Shown: piece after piece, positions 52,487 to 58,810 of the stretch | How the letters are laid out: the number at the start of each line of letters is the position of its first letter | Position numbering within the stretch: position 1 is the first letter of the stretch | Origin: Deltaproteobacteria bacterium | GTDB taxonomy: Bacteria > Desulfobacterota > GWC2-55-46 > UBA9637 | Assembly (NCBI GenBank): GCA_016195725.1 | Contig: JACPZB010000066.1 | Location: 1-60,271 of the forward strand | Direction of reading: 5' to 3' | DNA: 60,271 nucleotides | The notes under the pieces: model-generated | What the model saw: the letters and a program-made list of their open reading frames with translations, nothing else | Told to the model about the DNA's origin: nothing | Databases searched by the model: none | Program-made: the position numbers and the translations under genes

Positions 52487-52622
52487 AACATTACAAAATT
52501 ATCCAGATTTGGCAAAGATACAAGAAAAGACAGGCTTTAAAATTGGTAACAATCCTGATGTATTATGCGTTCACAAACAACACAGTAGCATGAAAATAAA
52601 TGTTGGGGGATAAGGGAGAAAG

Positions 52623-53420
52623 ATGACTGAGCAACGACAGCAGTTTGTTTTCAAGAACTTCACAGTGCCATTACCCCGATGAGGGGATAATGCACGGAAT
52701 GCGACGCATCTCATTGGGAAAGAATTCGGAAGAGGCTCTTTTGGTGTGGTCGATGAATGCACAGACTCGTGGGGCAACAAGTTGGCTGCCAAGGTGTTGG
52801 TGCCAAAACAGCAACCGTACGAGGCGGTTCGGAGTAATTGGAGTCATGAATTTAAGGTATTGGTCACCTTCTACCTTATAACAGAGCGGTGTCATTCAAC
52901 ACTCAGCAATCTGTTTCAAATTCCAAACTACAACGGATTGACTTGGATTATGCCTGCAGCACGGTGCCTTCTTCAATCTGGGCACTTCCTGCACAGAGCC
53001 GATGTTGTTCACAAAGATATTTATCCCGGCAACATTTTCACGTCCATCATCAAAGATGAAATCCTTCCCGGCCAGTATAACGCTATACGATTCAAACTGG
53101 GTGACTGCGGGATATCTATGGTGGTCAACGAAATAGCTATGTTCAACACCATTGTTGCCGAGTGGATGTTGCCCCCAGAATTTTGAAGCCCGACTGAATT
53201 CGGAAACATAGATTACCGCATAGATATCTATCACTGTGGCTTACTTATCCTGCAGGTCTTGTAAGGCAGATATTTATCGCTCACGAAACAACAGGTTGTT
53301 GACGGTCTACCTCGCCAGATGGCAGAAGCGTTATCAATGCCTTTCACTTTTGCGCTTTCCAAGGCATTGCGTCGTCACGTTGCCCATAGGACTGCTTCCG
53401 CAAATCTTTGCGAAGCCCGC
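52623..53420 (+). pseudogene. Ser/Thr protein kinase-like gene with three in-frame stop codons
   Basis: A single frame reads GRGSFGVV, LAAKVL, HKDIYPGNIF, KLGDCGIS, WMLPPEF and DIYHCGLLILQVL. It is interrupted by TGA (52680), TGA (53184) and TAA (53262). Confidence 0.7.
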
Positions 53421-53975
53421 CGCATAAGCGCTAAAGAGCTTCGTCACTATTATACGCAATGGATAGAAGGGAACAAAACAGATGAATCCCTTTTGCATAA
53501 GAAACAGGACGCTCATCCAGGCTCAAGACGAACCCCTAAAGAAGCAGAACGAAATATCATAAAGGCTTATAGAAGATTCGGCTCCAACAGATATAAGCTT
53601 GTTCTTCTTTTTAAGCCTTGCTGCTTGGATAAGACGCCTTCACCTGCCGCAATGAATTTACGGGAGCTCTTGAAAAAGAGCATCCCTTCAAAACCATGCG
53701 CAGTGAATTGGGCATAAGGCACATATACACAAAGCCTTACAGGCCCCAGACCAACGGAAAGATAGAGGCCTTCTAAAAGATATTTAAAAACGAATTCTTT
53801 TATCCCAAGTCGTTAGAATCAGAGCAGGATATGATTCTAAACCTTGGGCGTTTTCTCTTTGAATATAACCGCTTGAGAAAGCGCGGCGGCTTGAACTATG
53901 AAACACCTTTTGATAAACTTCAAAAAGTTGCCGAATTGGCGAGCTATCACAAGCGTCCTTTTATCCCATATTAAT
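53421..53975 (+). mobile_element. IS481-family transposase remnant (internally deleted and frameshifted)
   Basis: It has an N-terminal HTH-like piece (ISAKELRHYYTQW...) and a C-terminal integrase-core piece (GIRHIYTKPYRPQTNGKIEAF*...FEYNRLRKRGGLNYETPFDKL), with stops and frame changes. The catalytic core N-half is absent. Confidence 0.65.
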
Positions 53976-54082
53976 CTCAGCATCAGAGAGGTGATGCTAA
54001 TCTATTTAATTTGGTTTTTTCTGATAAATTAGTTTAATCGAGTTGCTTATTTACTTCAACATTTAAAGGGAGAGGCTCGTTA

Positions 54083-55636
54083 TTACTTGATCCTCTCCAG
54101 GAAGAATTTTACCTGTTTATCATTAGATTTTAATGCCAGAGCATTTTTAAATGCTAATTTTGCCTTCTGCTCATCTCCAATTTCATAATAACCCATACCG
54201 AGAGCCTTCCAGAGAGGAAAATCTTCTCCAAATTTCTGAACGCCCTCTTCCAGACGTGTTATTGCCGTCTTTTTATCCTGTAAAAGCTGATAGCAAAGCG
54301 CCAGATAGTAGTAGGCAACCGGTGTGGGTAATACCTGAATTGATTGCTCAAAAAACTGTGCGGCATTCTGGTAATCATTCTGTTTAAAGTGACCGTATGC
54401 CTGAGTCATCAAGTTTCCTGCCTTGCCAAAATCATTCTGCTGATTGACTTTACTTGCAACGGTTGGTTGCTGTTGTTGAGGGGTCCCCTGGGAAGGTGCC
54501 TCAGATATCTCCGTCCCTCCGCCGCTACCCATCGCCTGTACCCTAGCATACACATTTTCATTTATCGGAACGGTGAAGTAAATTTTAAGGAAGGTGTCCG
54601 CATTCAGCGAACCCCCCGCCAGATTAGTCTTTGACTTAAAATCTGAGAAGGCTGCTTTTGTTTTTTCATCTACCTTTCCGTTTATATCAATATCGTAGCC
54701 GTGTAAGTACAGTTTCTCCTGCATCATACTAATTCTACTGGTATCATCCAGCTTCGGGAATCCGCGCATCCAGCTTTTAATCACTATTTCATCAGACACG
54801 GCGTCTTCGCCAAACACCCTCCAGTACGGAATAGCTGCGTATCTTCCCATAAGCTGTATCATGCCTGACTGAACAAGAAGACGGACAGCATCATGTCTTC
54901 CCTGAACTATTTTTTTGCTCCCTTTTGAACCAAAAGTTGGACCGAAAAGTGTAATTCCGAATTCCTGTTTCCTCTGTCCTTTTTGCACTTCCATGCTGTT
55001 TACAACATTCATGCCTGGAATGCCTGAAAGCGTCCTGAAATCTTTTAAATTGAAATCTACTGTAATACGGGCTTTTGTAGCCATAGAAGCATCGCTATGT
55101 TCTATGCTTAGGGTCTGTGATGGCATAACTTTCTTTACTTGAGAGAATTCTGCCTCAGCTCCTACATCTATACCCTTGTCCCATGATTCAAGTGCCCTGT
55201 CAAATTCGGTTATTGCACCAGTTACCACAATATCAGGTATTAACTTATTGCTGAAATCTGAATAACCGGTCTGCTGCATGGACTGAACGAATTCAGGGTC
55301 ATATTCAATGAAAACAACATTTTCGCCCATAGAGTTGAGCGCGCTTTTGACAATCTCTGTTATATTCTGCTGTATTTCACTTCCGGTTGCAACAGACGCG
55401 CCTGTTTTATCAACAATATCTTTCACCATAACCTTTAGCGGTTGCGCCCTGTGAATTTCCATCATCAGGCCAAAAGTCTTTAAATTATCTGTGAAGGCGG
55501 TGACCTTCTGTACAGGGGCAGTCGTCTCCACCGGCACTTCCATACGCTTCGGCTCCATTGTGGCGCAAGACAGTAACAACAATGGTAATGCCAATGAGAG
55601 TAAAACATAGGTAAATCCTCTTGCAACACCTTTCAT
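54083..55636 (-). CDS. Lipoprotein with CsgG-like secretion-channel domain, PG-binding-like segment and C-terminal TPR repeats
   Basis: Lipobox LLLLSC. The block LKVMVKDIVDKTG..TEIVKSALNS, then IVVTGAITEF, ITVDFNLKDFRT and AVRLLVQSGMIQL, is collinear with E. coli CsgG as I recall it. YGHFKQNDYQNAAQFFEQ and related segments are TPR-like. Confidence 0.5.
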   Translation of the reverse strand: MKGVARGFTYVLLSLALPLLLLSCATMEPKRMEVPVETTAPVQKVTAFTDNLKTFGLMMEIHRAQPLKVMVKDIVDKTGASVATGSEIQQNITEIVKSALNSMGENVVFIEYDPEFVQSMQQTGYSDFSNKLIPDIVVTGAITEFDRALESWDKGIDVGAEAEFSQVKKVMPSQTLSIEHSDASMATKARITVDFNLKDFRTLSGIPGMNVVNSMEVQKGQRKQEFGITLFGPTFGSKGSKKIVQGRHDAVRLLVQSGMIQLMGRYAAIPYWRVFGEDAVSDEIVIKSWMRGFPKLDDTSRISMMQEKLYLHGYDIDINGKVDEKTKAAFSDFKSKTNLAGGSLNADTFLKIYFTVPINENVYARVQAMGSGGGTEISEAPSQGTPQQQQPTVASKVNQQNDFGKAGNLMTQAYGHFKQNDYQNAAQFFEQSIQVLPTPVAYYYLALCYQLLQDKKTAITRLEEGVQKFGEDFPLWKALGMGYYEIGDEQKAKLAFKNALALKSNDKQVKFFLERIK

Positions 55637-55748
55637 ATCTATCTCCTCTCTTGAAATGTTTATTTAAATATATCCCAATGCCTTCTTATCAGGCAGATTC
55701 TTTTCGCATCTGATTATAAATCTGAAACAGAATAATCCAAACACCACA

Positions 55749-56815
55749 TTCAATGAGCAATTGCAACACAATGAGATAAGACCTCAAAAGGCATCTGAAA
55801 GTCAAGACACTTTTTGGGTCGGTCGTTGATTAAGATATTCTATACGGTTGAGTTGATGTTGGGTGATTTTAACAGAATCCGTCTTCTTTGACAAAAAGCG
55901 GCGAACTAATCCAACAGCATTCTCAACAGAGCCTTTTCCCAGGCTATGACAAGGATTGCAAAAATAGGCCTGCCCCCGAATGCATCTATCGGGGGACTGT
56001 GTTCCAAGACTTTTATTGGTCTTTAGATGCTCTACATTCTCTGAACCGTTGTCATAGGTTATAGTCCGCCTCATGAAAGGCGGATACGATTGAAGGCTGT
56101 TTTCAATTGCCTGAGATAATAAGGCAGACGACTTTTGTTTGATCTTTTTAAGATGAATGATTTGACTTGTGCGTTCCAGCATAACAGCCACAGCTGCCTG
56201 ACTTTGACGTGATATTATCGTATCGGTTTCCCAATGGCCAGGCTGTTTGCGTTCTTCGACTGATTTTGCTATGTGCTCAATTGACCTTCGCACCGGAATA
56301 TGGCTTGTACACTGTTTACGAGGATTCCCACGTGGCAGTCGTTTCCTGTGGGCATGTGGCAAATAAACTGTTAAATCTTCTTCGTATTGTTTTTTGTTAT
56401 AGATAAACCGGTATATGGCCTCATGACCGATGGATACATTCGGATGATCCTTAGACCATCGTCCTGAGATGAGTTTTGGCGACCAGCCAAGTTTTAGTTT
56501 TTCAACCACATAGGCCATAAGCTTTTGGTCTTTGAGTCTCGGCCGCTGACCCAGGACTTGCATTGTCGCTCTTTTGCGCCTTTATCTGCTTTATGAGGCA
56601 GATAGCAATCATAGACTGGTGATTTGTTGCGTTTCGGTTCCCGTGAGATTGCGCTTTTGTCCCGGTTTATGATTTTCGCTATTTCAGTTATTTTGAAGCC
56701 TTGAGCGCGAAGAACAGCTATCTTCTCTCTCAACGCTTGCGAAGTATTTATAATTTTGCTTGTGCATTCACTTTAGGATACCGTCCTTTCCTAAGTGTTG
56801 CGCTTCCTTATTGAA
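55749..56815 (-). mobile_element. IS30-family insertion sequence (1067 bp) with frameshifted transposase
   Basis: Terminal inverted repeats TTCAATGAGCAATTGCAACAC (55749-55769) and GTGTTGCGCTTCCTTATTGAA (56795-56815) match at 17 of 21 positions. The transposase is split into ORFs 56733-56494 and 56563-55802 (WSPKLISGRW, HWETDTII, TYDNGSEN, GSVENAVGLVRRFL). Confidence 0.8.
55802..56733 (-). pseudogene. IS30 transposase, interrupted by one frameshift near 56560-56580
   Basis: The N-terminal HTH part and the DDE part lie in different frames with a 70-nt overlap of the two ORFs. Confidence 0.75.
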
Positions 56816-56845
56816 CTGGGGAACAAATAAAACGCAAGCAATAGC

Positions 56846-57226
56846 CTATTTGTCCACTATTTGAGTCTTTGGCCCTTTGCTCTCATCAATGATAATGATA
56901 TCGCCTTTTACACTGCCGCCAGGCCCCAGCACCACGCTGTTCATATTTCCTGAGGCATCAGTTTTGCCGCCAGACTTGCTGGATGAACTGCTATCATTGC
57001 TTTGGTCGCTCTTTTTTTGTCTTACCTTTACCTTGCTCTTTGCATCCATCTTCTTGAATTTTATGTTTGGTGAGAATTCACCCATCTCGTGGTCAGACTG
57101 AATATCATCGTCGGTGTATTTTCCAATCTTATCGTCCAGATCGCCTGCAATAGATGGGGTAGAGAGAGATAACGCTATGAATATGGTAAATATGAATATT
57201 ATTGTGCATAGATAAACTCTTCTCAT
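56846..57226 (-). CDS. Small secreted Ser/Asp/Lys-rich protein ending in one unit related to the neighbouring 36-aa repeat
   Basis: Signal peptide MRRVYLCTIIFIFTIFIALSLSTPSIAG. The C-terminal GNMNSVVLGPGGSVKGDIIII parallels ANMGSVGIKGSDVKGAVIN of the repeat protein. Confidence 0.6.
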   Translation of the reverse strand: MRRVYLCTIIFIFTIFIALSLSTPSIAGDLDDKIGKYTDDDIQSDHEMGEFSPNIKFKKMDAKSKVKVRQKKSDQSNDSSSSSKSGGKTDASGNMNSVVLGPGGSVKGDIIIIDESKGPKTQIVDK

Positions 57227-57303
57227 TGTAGTCGCCCCTCTTGTGCTTTTACAGGGATGGGAGTATTCACTCCATCCCACCCCCGTAAAAAACACTAATC
57301 ACC

Positions 57304-57813
57304 TTACTTTACGTTTACTGAACCCATATTGGCTTCGTTGCCTTTGCCGATTGCAATGTTTGCTGAGCCCTTAACATCTGACTTGTTGATAATTGCGCCT
57401 TTAACCTTTGAGCTCTTGATGTTTACTGAACCCATATTGGCTTTGTTGCCTTCACCAATTGCAATGTTTGCTGAGCCCTTTACATCTGACTGATTGATAA
57501 CTGCGCCTTTAACATCAGAACCCTTGATGCCTACTGACCCCATGTTAGCTTCATTGCCTTTGCCGATTGCAATGTTTGCTGAGCCCTTAACATCTGACTT
57601 ATTGATAACTGCGCCTTTAACCTTTGAGCCCTCGATGCCTACTGCTCCCACATTGGCTTTATTGCCTTCGCCGATTGCAATGTTTGCTGAGCCCTTAACA
57701 TCTGACTTGTTGATTACTGCGCCTTTGATGTCTGACCCTGCAAAGGCCATTGCTGCTGTCAAAAACACACCCATACATCCCATAGCTATAATTTTTTTAA
57801 ACATTGGTAACAC
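57304..57813 (-). CDS. Secreted repeat protein; the mature part is exactly four 36-aa repeats (candidate beta-solenoid or functional-amyloid subunit)
   Basis: 25-aa signal peptide ending AFA, then 4 copies of GS(D/K)VKGAVINKSDVKGSANIAIG(E/K)GN(K/E)AN(M/V)GSV(G/N)I(K/E). GGAGG precedes the ATG. Confidence 0.8.
   Translation of the reverse strand: MLPMFKKIIAMGCMGVFLTAAMAFAGSDIKGAVINKSDVKGSANIAIGEGNKANVGAVGIEGSKVKGAVINKSDVKGSANIAIGKGNEANMGSVGIKGSDVKGAVINQSDVKGSANIAIGEGNKANMGSVNIKSSKVKGAIINKSDVKGSANIAIGKGNEANMGSVNVK
57313..57744. repeat. Four tandem 108-bp repeats (coding)
   Basis: Units start at 57313, 57421, 57529 and 57637. High nucleotide identity was read directly. Confidence 0.9.
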
Positions 57814-58078
57814 CTCCTCTTCAGTTTTTTACGAAATTTGCTATAAAGAACTCTATTTTATGATAAAATATTCCTGCTCCACCTCCTTTCGTCATTTAAA
57901 TTATAGTTTACTAGTGTCATAATAATACAATTATAAGATATAAATGTCAATGGAAAATGTGAAACCGTTATTTTTAAGGAGGTAAATGGCCGTGAAGGCC
58001 GCAACTAAAAAAATTCCTTAAATCATCTTAAAGGGCGGCAGGATGTAACCCCTGCCGCCACTAAAACAACTTGAGAAT

Positions 58079-58810
58079 ATGGGAAATGCCCGTTCACATG
58101 CCATAGGATTTCAGATTATTGTCTTTACCATGTTATTACTCGCAGGATGCGCATCTGCTCCGCCGCAGGGTTATTATTCAAAGCAAGGCACGCAAAGGGC
58201 TTATCAAATTGACGGCAAATGGTATTCTCCGGTTGATTCATCAAATGGATATGAAGAGGAGGGGATTGCATCGTGGTATGGCAGAGACTTTCACGGCAAC
58301 AAAACCTCCAATGGAGAAACCTATAACATGCATGCCATGACCGCTGCACACAAGACCCTTCCCCTTGGCACTTATGTAAAGGTTACAAGGCTTGATAACG
58401 GGAAAGAGACTGTTGTAAGGATCAATGACCGTGGGCCTTTTGTGAAAGGGAGGATTATTGACCTTTCTTACAAAGCGGCCTCGGAAGTGGGCATTGCAGA
58501 CAGCGGCACTGCTAAAGTTAAGATAGCGGCTCTGGGAGATGCTGTCGGCGATAAACTTGTAGCAAGGGATTATCAACATGGAAATTTCATGGTGCAGGCG
58601 GGCGCATTCACGGTAAACTCCAATGCGGCAAAATTAAGGGACAACCTCTTGCAACGATATAGTAATGTTTCAATAACTACATACGACAGAGGCGATACGG
58701 TTTTTTACAGAGTCAGGGTTGGCGGCACAGTTAGTTTGAAGGAAGCCGAAAGGCTTAAAAGCAGGTTAGAGGCAGAAGGGGTGGAATCACCGTTTGTGGT
58801 TGCGGATTAA
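58079..58810 (+). CDS. rlpA: Septal ring lytic transglycosylase RlpA (DPBB plus SPOR domains), lipoprotein
   Basis: Lipobox [40 protein letters not shown]......[10 protein letters not shown], and a C-terminal SPOR-like [14 protein letters not shown]. Confidence 0.9.

Follow-up and report, generated by a model that had tools for sequence, protein, structure and literature searches.

A CsgG-fold lipoprotein gene parted by a relic IS30-family element from the repeat-protein genes of a conserved cassette

Organization of the locus

The window, by which we mean the whole stretch of DNA analysed here (60,271 nucleotides), is a whole 60-kb contig, JACPZB010000066.1, of the Deltaproteobacteria bacterium assembly GCA_016195725.1, a 90%-complete genome bin of 2.07 Mb (G000). 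Four features lie together on its minus strand: a gene for a repeat protein, a gene for a small protein, fragments of a transposase, and an open reading frame (ORF) of 517 amino acids (aa) that encodes a lipoprotein. This lipoprotein consists, in order, of a signal peptide with a lipobox, a CsgG-fold domain, a helical domain resembling PG_binding_1, a Q/P-rich linker and three tetratricopeptide repeats (TPRs). We think it likely that the lipoprotein is a CsgG-fold outer-membrane protein encoded by the third gene of a cassette for curli-like export, and that an insertion sequence (IS) located within the cassette has left its gene probably expressed. The coordinates of all features are collected in Table 1. 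Three related genomes recur in the comparisons: G001, which is of the same genus as G000 and 93% complete, G003, which is of the same family, and G012 (GCA_016234925.1), which is of another family.

Table 1. Features of the cassette and its surroundings in the window
Feature	Coordinates	Strand	Remarks and evidence
Lipoprotein gene	54083..55636	-	517 aa, intact; ORF list, full-length homologues at 83-85% identity, ratio of nonsynonymous to synonymous substitution rates (dN/dS) 0.13-0.18
Signal peptide with lipobox LLLLS↓C (residues 1-24)	55565..55636	-	+2 residue Ala; sequence, Cys24 invariance
CsgG-fold domain (residues 25-275)	54812..55564	-	Predicted from AlphaFold 2 (AF2) models, Foldseek, hhalign
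PG_binding_1-like helical domain (residues 283-371)	54524..54790	-	Putative; PF01471, domain profile against PDB
Three TPR motifs and capping helix (residues 399-517)	54086..54442	-	TPR_2 E 1.1e-11, TPR_1 E 6e-9
Retained proximal native spacer, 107 nt	55637..55743	-	Alignment with four IS-free spacers
Relic IS30-family element, 1,078 bp	55744..56821	-	Operon orientation; NF033563, HTH_38, alignment with G003 and G012 copies, empty site
Transposase fragments	55802-56733	-	ORF list
Palindromic insert of ~27 nt in transposase gene, core CCCCGATAGATGCATTCGGGG	55969..55996	-	Without counterpart in two other IS copies
Promoter-like site in 3' part of IS, facing lipoprotein gene	55866..55894	-	TTGTCA-17-TAAAAT with upstream TG, 10/12; consensus match only
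Small secreted protein gene	56846..57226	-	126 aa; alignment with orthologues
Repeat-protein gene	57304..57804	-	166 aa; sequence, upstream repeat ORFs in relatives
Best sigma-70-like site before repeat gene; candidate operon promoter	57922..57950	-	TTGACA-17-TATTAT, 11/12; consensus scan, lead only
5.6-kb island between U32 peptidase gene and rlpA	52487..58078	.	U32 and rlpA adjacent in G001 and G003

Domain structure of the lipoprotein

The original prediction, made from the nucleotide sequence, described the product as a lipoprotein with lipobox LLLLSC, a segment like a peptidoglycan (PG)-binding repeat and TPR motifs at the C-terminus; the lipobox and the TPRs were recovered clearly, the PG-binding-like segment at marginal significance. 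The ORF begins MKGVARGFTYVLLSLALPLLLLSC and encodes a basic n-region and a hydrophobic core, with the lipobox at residues 19-24; the lipobox Cys24 was invariant in 34 of 34 homologues. In a single-sequence Pfam scan, residues 406-510 matched TPR_2 (PF07719; 44.3 bits against a cut-off of 27) and TPR_1 (PF00515; 35.7 against 27.8), giving three clear TPRs, and the tail was modelled as seven helices with a predicted local distance difference test score (pLDDT) of ~90. The middle domain was less conspicuous. PG_binding_1 (PF01471) matched residues 301-340 of the window protein weakly (E 0.033, 14.8 bits against a cut-off of 23), while 26 of the 34 homologues, scanned one by one, matched it at E < 1 (best 9.8e-5). 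A profile of this domain ranked only PG_binding_1-bearing cell-wall enzymes, 4xxt (E 0.0043) and 5tv7 (0.0094), at the top of the PDB list, and AmpDh2, 1lbu and the endolysin gp144 were further matches. Because the significance is marginal, we describe the domain as PG_binding_1-like and its binding as putative.

A database search yielded 285 relatives, which carry public names such as "hypothetical", "TPR protein" and "DUF4384 domain-containing"; a single homologue entry in JGI is named CsgG/PilF. Some members of the family, mostly from Desulfobulbales, are devoid of TPRs and end, in the alignment of C-termini, in the motif G-R-x-L-x-x-[DE]-[DE]-W after a Pro/Ala/Gln-rich linker; this motif may take the place of the TPR tail as a docking peptide. 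Another member lies on a 2.4-kb low-coverage contig, JAIWHJ010000475.1, that was binned as a Promethearchaeota archaeon, and is most likely a binning error rather than an archaeal CsgG-like gene.

CsgG fold of the N-terminal domain

CsgG is a nonameric 36-strand pore in which two beta-hairpins build the transmembrane barrel and Tyr51/Asn55/Phe56 form the constriction. Blocks collinear with CsgG had been noticed in the N-terminal part of the lipoprotein, and both profile and structure comparisons bore them out. As the target for hhalign, we aligned seven proteins of related genomes that score 103-183 bits on Pfam CsgG. The family profile matched this alignment with a probability of 68-88% and an E-value of 3e-7 in global or 5e-5 in local mode, and the match spanned 223-225 columns, that is, the whole N-domain, with the shared blocks DxTG, G-[AG]-ITEF and ARIT-x-DFN. 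The comparison with a single CsgG-like paralogue of the same genome was uninformative (probability 0.1%).

Two AF2 models were used, model 1 of the full-length protein (34 sequences, pLDDT 76.9) and model 2 of residues 25-372 (77 sequences, predicted template modelling score 0.73). Both consist of helix, strand, loop, helix, strand, helix, two long hairpins and a long helix, the beta-hairpins being placed at 136-199 and 205-244 and the C-terminal helix at 247-267, with an alpha/beta core. When the models were searched against PDB with Foldseek, CsgG chains took all of the first 13 places for model 1 (best 6l7a_A, E 3.6e-8) and all of the first 25 for model 2 (E 4.5e-10), with a Foldseek probability of 1.00 and target-normalised template modelling scores of 0.46-0.63. 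For both models, entries of the membrane form of CsgG outranked the pre-pore form 4uv2. Non-channel folds trailed, namely FlgT (4e-4), HpaA (~1e-3), PelC (3.5e-3) and GNA1162 (7e-3). In 81 family sequences, the hairpin tips alternate between hydrophobic and polar residues at 156-164/176-182 and 226-231/235-241, and D157, E161 and E163 form a conserved acidic face of the hairpin. The models and profiles thus indicate that the N-domain is a distant homologue with the CsgG fold, while by the curated hidden Markov model (HMM) threshold it is a non-member. From the same models we infer that the lipoprotein may form a pore.

Several results weigh against this reading. The window protein gave no match to PF03783 (CsgG) at E ≤ 0.1 in the Pfam scan and so stays below the family threshold; in favour of homology, 15 of the 34 homologues touched this family weakly (E < 1, best 3.4e-4). 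The one named NCBIfam family that matched the N-domain, HfaB (NF037935), did so weakly over residues 32-108 (E 0.006), at 15.8 bits against a cut-off of 300. An HMM search of PDB with the N-domain profile found nothing, and the same search with the full-length profile found TPR proteins only. The model confidence of the hairpins is moderate (pLDDT 57-78) and their hydrophobic tips are short. Finally, the constriction loop, TG[AT]S..[TS]G.EI, is ~10 residues shorter than in Pfam-CsgG proteins and contains neither Tyr-Asn-Phe nor a Y..NF motif.

These shortfalls in the CsgG HMM score, the constriction loop and the hairpin confidence also favour a different explanation, in which the lipoprotein is a non-channel ring or scaffold under the outer membrane, like PelC, FlgT/FlgP, LpoB or HpaA, its PG-binding-like and TPR parts brace some other structure, and the repeat proteins exit otherwise or stay in the periplasm. 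It would suit this explanation that FlgT, the LPHT ring, HpaA, PelC and GNA1162 are among the fold matches and that Nitrospirota cassettes sit among envelope genes of the FlgT_N, LpoB and SLH types. However, its folds, FlgT and PelC included, score 4-7 orders of magnitude worse than CsgG, both of the hairpin insertions that distinguish CsgG are present in the models, with amphipathic tips, the membrane form of CsgG is the better match, and the conserved cassette contains no other exporter gene. We regard a non-channel scaffold as unlikely and prefer the reading of the lipoprotein as a CsgG-type channel.

Repeat-protein partners and conservation of the cassette

The mature repeat protein is composed of 4 x 36 aa, has an isoelectric point of 9.8 and contains neither aromatic residues nor Cys. 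A signal peptide and an acidic N-terminal GDLDD segment characterise the small protein, which at its C-terminus, NMNSVVLGPGGSVKGDIIIIDESKG, resembles a single unit of the repeat protein, NMGSVNIKSSKVKGAIINKSDVKG. Neither partner protein matched a known family in Pfam and NCBIfam scans.

The original prediction suggested a search of related genomes for loci without the IS; such loci were found, and their three genes are as closely packed as foreseen. In the closest IS-free orthologue, that of GCA_016234925.1, a 166-aa repeat gene and a 127-aa small gene are followed by the lipoprotein gene after a spacer of 127 nt. Homologues of the lipoprotein in close relatives are 83-85% identical over the full length. 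A relative with 74% identity (L007) has the same three-gene order with a 91-nt spacer, the locus of Citrifermentans bremense (strain R4, lipoprotein GEOBRER4_n0929) combines the lipoprotein with a repeat protein of 344 aa and a small protein of 124 aa, and a Desulforhopalus genome encodes a 393-aa repeat protein and the lipoprotein. The Desulforhopalus repeat protein (L013:4688-5869) matched Pfam CsgE (30.3 bits against a cut-off of 25), but the match sums three repeated stretches and we treat it as probably an artefact of repeats or composition. The number of repeats varies among close relatives, being 2 x 36 aa in G003 (93 aa; L025:3617-3898) and 4 x 36 aa in the window and G012; in distant loci the number rises to ~10, and an additional repeat protein of 600-870 aa is encoded at some of them.

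We then turned to a species-level scan with one genome per species, in which 197 genomes contained a relative of the lipoprotein; 80 loci were fetched, and 65 of them had at least 1.5 kb of upstream sequence. A strict regular expression for the repeat motif matched 25 of these 65 loci, and because the repeats are divergent, a looser pattern was used with the opposite strand as a control. An upstream repeat-motif ORF on the same strand was then present in 52/65 loci. The lipoprotein gene was preceded at ≤ 700 nt by the end of a small "DLDD" ORF in 48/65, and both ORFs occurred together in 46/65, while the opposite-strand control gave no repeat-motif ORF in any of the 80 loci. Two or more repeat ORFs, some of 600-870 aa, occurred in 18/65. 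Loci with an upstream repeat ORF were found in Nitrospirota, Desulfobulbales, Desulfobacterales, Desulfuromonadales/Geobacterales and others, so that the neighbourhood of lipoprotein and repeat genes is kept across several phyla.

In 11 of the 65 loci, neither a repeat ORF nor a small ORF lies upstream. These loci count against a fixed partnership and suggest that some members of the family may work without repeat partners; they are also what one would expect if the lipoprotein and the repeat proteins, having unrelated functions, were neighbours by chance or in this lineage only. We consider chance neighbourhood very improbable, given that order and strand are kept in 52/65 loci as against none of 80 on the opposite strand, and that the three genes have travelled as a group to differing contexts in G000, G003 and G012. 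Literature searches on CsgG-like lipoproteins with TPRs and on CsgG in Geobacter and Desulfobulbaceae returned no description of the family, although their coverage was incomplete and this is weak evidence of novelty. The lipoprotein gene thus appears to be the last gene of a widespread and, as far as these searches go, apparently undescribed cassette of three genes (repeat, small, lipoprotein).

In other Nitrospirota (L007:9618-16494, L014:388-10409), the cassette is embedded in a larger envelope locus, which encodes a second CsgG-like/TPR protein (345-354 aa), a transglutaminase-core protein, an FlgT_N-like protein, a TPR and CsgG protein of 660 aa, an SLH protein and a conserved exported protein of 318-322 aa. 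None of these is present in the island of the window.

Proposed export mechanism

The cassette suggests a mechanism in which export of the repeat proteins would proceed through the lipoprotein. The product of the first gene, a predicted Sec-exported, basic, aromatic-free protein made only of 36-aa repeats, would reach the periplasm through Sec as unfolded subunits, which would then pass the oligomeric barrel of the lipoprotein and polymerise outside the cell in a manner resembling type VIII secretion. The small protein, with its one repeat, may act as a cap, nucleator or anchor. The periplasmic tail of the lipoprotein, consisting of the PG_binding_1-like bundle, the Q/P-rich linker and the three TPRs, could fasten the channel to the cell wall, capture subunits, or do both. 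It may also do the work of CsgE, a separate adaptor that the cassette does not encode.

A broader proposal is that the cassette represents a self-contained, as yet undescribed branch of type VIII-like secretion that occurs in ~200 species-level genomes of anaerobes from Nitrospirota, Desulfobacterota and allied groups, in which a channel with fused adaptor or tether tails (PG-binding-like, TPR or other) exports non-curlin subunits of 36-aa repeats to form a new surface fibre, and which moves as a unit. For this proposal we see the chances as evenly balanced.

The IS30-family element

In the window, the small gene and the lipoprotein gene are separated by an IS. Its assignment to the IS30 family was confirmed by the transposase fragment, which matched NF033563 at E 1e-56 and, in its N-terminal part, HTH_38 at E 1e-7. 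The element was aligned to full-length copies in G003 and G012 (74% and 73% identity), and homology ran from CCCCAGTTCAAT to ATTGAATGTGG. As a result, its length, first given as 1067 bp, had to be corrected to 1,078 bp. The 21-nt terminal repeats predicted earlier do exist, at 55749-55769 and 56795-56815, but they are part of longer, imperfect inverted repeats of ~27 nt at 56795-56821 and 55744-55769.

Comparison of the flanks, ...ATT TGTT-IS-TGTT TGGATT..., with the IS-free spacer of G012, which reads ATTTGTTTGTATT, revealed a TGTT target duplication (56822-56825 and 55740-55743) and an exact empty site. The joined flanks without the IS measure 127 nt, the same length as the G012 spacer. Compact spacing without the IS was therefore rightly foreseen, with a distance of 127 nt between the small gene and the lipoprotein gene instead of ~140; 77 nt lie between the repeat gene and the small gene.

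The transposase had been recognized as frameshifted. Compared with the intact 330-aa transposase of G003, it has in fact undergone three frame changes and a 27-nt in-frame insertion rather than one frameshift, and the G012 copy of the IS is likewise broken. By its sequence, the IS of the window is a non-autonomous relic, and the element would have entered the 127-nt spacer and decayed afterwards. Matches to its palindromic insert (28-36 nt, 88-100% identity) are numerous in 15 related genomes, with 10 places in G038 for example, and the insert looks like a member of a repeat family of the lineage that is similar to repetitive extragenic palindromic or miniature inverted-repeat elements. Elsewhere in the genome we found only one further end of the IS, a solo right end on another contig (C98:17572-17614) with 93% identity over 41-43 nt, which is a trace of an earlier copy.

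Effect of the insertion on the lipoprotein gene

The stop codon of the small gene lies 24 nt ahead of the insertion point, and 107 nt follow up to the ATG of the lipoprotein gene. No other part of the spacer is as well conserved as these retained 107 nt, which include a TATAAT (55713-55718) that is present in four close IS-free spacers, two of which (L005, L024) are from the same genome, a ribosome-binding site (RBS), GAGAGGAGA, and a conserved hairpin, TGCCT-loop-AGGCA, at 55679-55695. This hairpin was flagged in the G012 orthologue (L005:7939-7953) as well and persists, with another loop, even in the 74%-identical relative L007; its T-run lies on the opposite strand. It could be a stabiliser of the 5'-untranslated region, an attenuator that sets the ratio of subunit to channel, or an antisense terminator. 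A review links glycine/c-di-GMP (cyclic di-GMP) tandem riboswitches to csgG genes (PMC9481103). In our searches, positions 53900-58200 contained no Rfam match at E ≤ 1, and no riboswitch was found in 13 related loci.

The original prediction had left open whether the IS inactivates the channel gene by polarity or supplies it with a new promoter. The window has a promoter-like site in the IS at 55894-55866, where the intact G003 copy reads TTGCCT/TACAGT. Counts of promoter and terminator sites were not above those in shuffled sequence, and the sites named here are leads only. Transcripts of the lipoprotein gene could start in the preserved proximal spacer or at such an outward promoter within the IS, or could arise by read-through.

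Polar inactivation appears unlikely, because the ORF is intact, its dN/dS against the orthologues is 0.13-0.18 and private changes are not in excess: substitutions private to one copy, at positions otherwise shared by five relatives, number 4 in the window copy, all conservative, and 3, 0 and 4 in the IS-free copies. Since a gene silenced throughout the decay of the IS should look worse, these comparisons tip the balance towards a lipoprotein gene that is still expressed.

The opposite explanation is that the locus is dying: the IS would have cut the lipoprotein gene from the operon promoter, and the gene would be silent and intact only for lack of time. Signs of decay do exist around it. The island also contains a further IS remnant and a kinase-like gene interrupted by stop codons, G001 lacks the cassette, and its distribution in the class is patchy (full-length orthologues in 3/40 relatives); in addition, untranslated IS RNA could trigger Rho termination. 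Nevertheless, the IS gained three frameshifts and a 27-nt insert within ~1 kb, whereas the adjacent ORF of 1.55 kb shows neither a defect nor an excess of private changes. The 107 nt before the gene, including TATAAT, hairpin and RBS, are preserved, and a scan for terminator-like sites found none on the coding strand inside the IS. We consider a dying locus improbable and retain the view that the gene is probably still expressed.

Genomic setting of the cassette

Full-length orthologues of the lipoprotein were found in 3 of 40 related genomes, and same-genus G001 has none. The identity of the lipoprotein to that of G012, a genome of another family, is 85% and equals its identity to the in-family G003, whereas the housekeeping protein Fmt (68% for G012 against 76% for G003) and the U32 peptidase (80% against 88%) are more similar to the in-family proteins. 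In G001 and G003, the U32 gene is directly followed by rlpA, with gaps of ~220 and 37 nt, whereas 5.6 kb separate the two genes in the window. This island contains the kinase-like pseudogene, the IS remnant and the whole cassette. From the insertion between U32 and rlpA and the other contexts in which the cassette is found in G003 and G012, the cassette behaves, as judged by sequence comparison, like a unit that moves laterally. The island has no flanking direct repeats of the att type; the only pair detected, of 16 nt with 88% identity, is probably due to chance.

Comparison with known systems

The cassette is most like curli secretion and, second, Caulobacter HfaABD, and it is a member of neither. 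To our knowledge, functional detail on CsgG-type channels comes only from curli and, to a lesser degree, from the Caulobacter holdfast anchor.

Like the curli system of E. coli (CsgG with CsgA/CsgB and CsgE/CsgF; PDB 4UV3, 4Q79, 6L7A, 6SI7), the cassette encodes a lipoprotein predicted to have the CsgG fold and both barrel-forming hairpins together with a Sec-exported major subunit made entirely of repeats, whose core, GxGNxA, is as in curlin repeats. Just as CsgB shares its repeat unit with CsgA, the small protein shares that of the repeat protein. The differences are nevertheless considerable. The window protein is 13-15% identical to curli CsgG and below the Pfam threshold, its constriction loop is shorter and lacks Tyr-Asn-Phe, its first hairpin is ~19 residues longer, and a PG_binding_1-like domain and TPRs are fused to it. 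There is no csgE or csgF in the cassette, and the genome search gave no match to Curlin_rpt or CsgF. Unlike curlin subunits, the 36-aa repeats contain neither aromatic nor Gln/Asn-ladder residues and belong to no Pfam family. Whereas curli genes form two divergent operons, those of the cassette are arranged in one co-directional unit.

The holdfast anchor of Caulobacter is encoded by a small operon, and its products HfaA, HfaB and HfaD form a surface-attached structure. It likewise pairs a CsgG-like lipoprotein with small secreted partners, but the score of the window protein for HfaB is far below the cut-off and its partners are unrelated to HfaA and HfaD. We know of no TPR or PG-binding extension in HfaB.

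Exopolysaccharide exporters (PelB/PelC, BcsC, PgaA, AlgK/AlgE) likewise couple a periplasmic TPR module to an outer-membrane export pore, and PelC, a lipoprotein ring, belongs to the same fold superfamily (fold match E 3.5e-3). In those systems the polysaccharide leaves through a separate porin of 16-18 strands, whereas here the TPRs are fused to a predicted CsgG-type protomer and the neighbouring genes encode proteins, not glycosyltransferases.

The IS shares with the IS30 family a DDE transposase, HTH_38, terminal inverted repeats of ~27 nt and a short target duplication. It differs from autonomous elements, such as that encoding the intact 330-aa version in G003, in its three frameshifts and the 27-nt foreign insert.

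If the proposed export holds, the CsgG-type pore design would serve a quite different, non-curlin repeat cargo, and adaptor or tether domains for the periplasm could be part of the pore protein itself. Systems of this kind would be common in anaerobic bacteria of sediment and groundwater, in which surface fibres affect attachment, aggregation and possibly contact with minerals. The IS-bearing allele is a natural experiment, because the channel gene was parted from the subunit genes and neither was destroyed, and it should be useful for studying transcription of the cassette. CsgG pores are used in nanopore sequencing, and a divergent pore whose constriction loop differs and whose lumen is acidic may be of practical use.

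Apart from the cassette, the genome has an orphan CsgE-like ORF of 97 aa on contig C14 of G000 (L134:5012-5305, minus strand; Pfam CsgE 47 bits, E 4.5e-12). It has no obvious signal peptide, a stop codon lies just upstream, and it adjoins a gene for a 78-aa LuxR-type helix-turn-helix protein (L134:4750-4986, minus strand), with no CsgG, CsgF or curlin gene nearby. The ORF could be what is left of a further curli-like locus, or its product could be the partner of one of the CsgG-like proteins of the genome.

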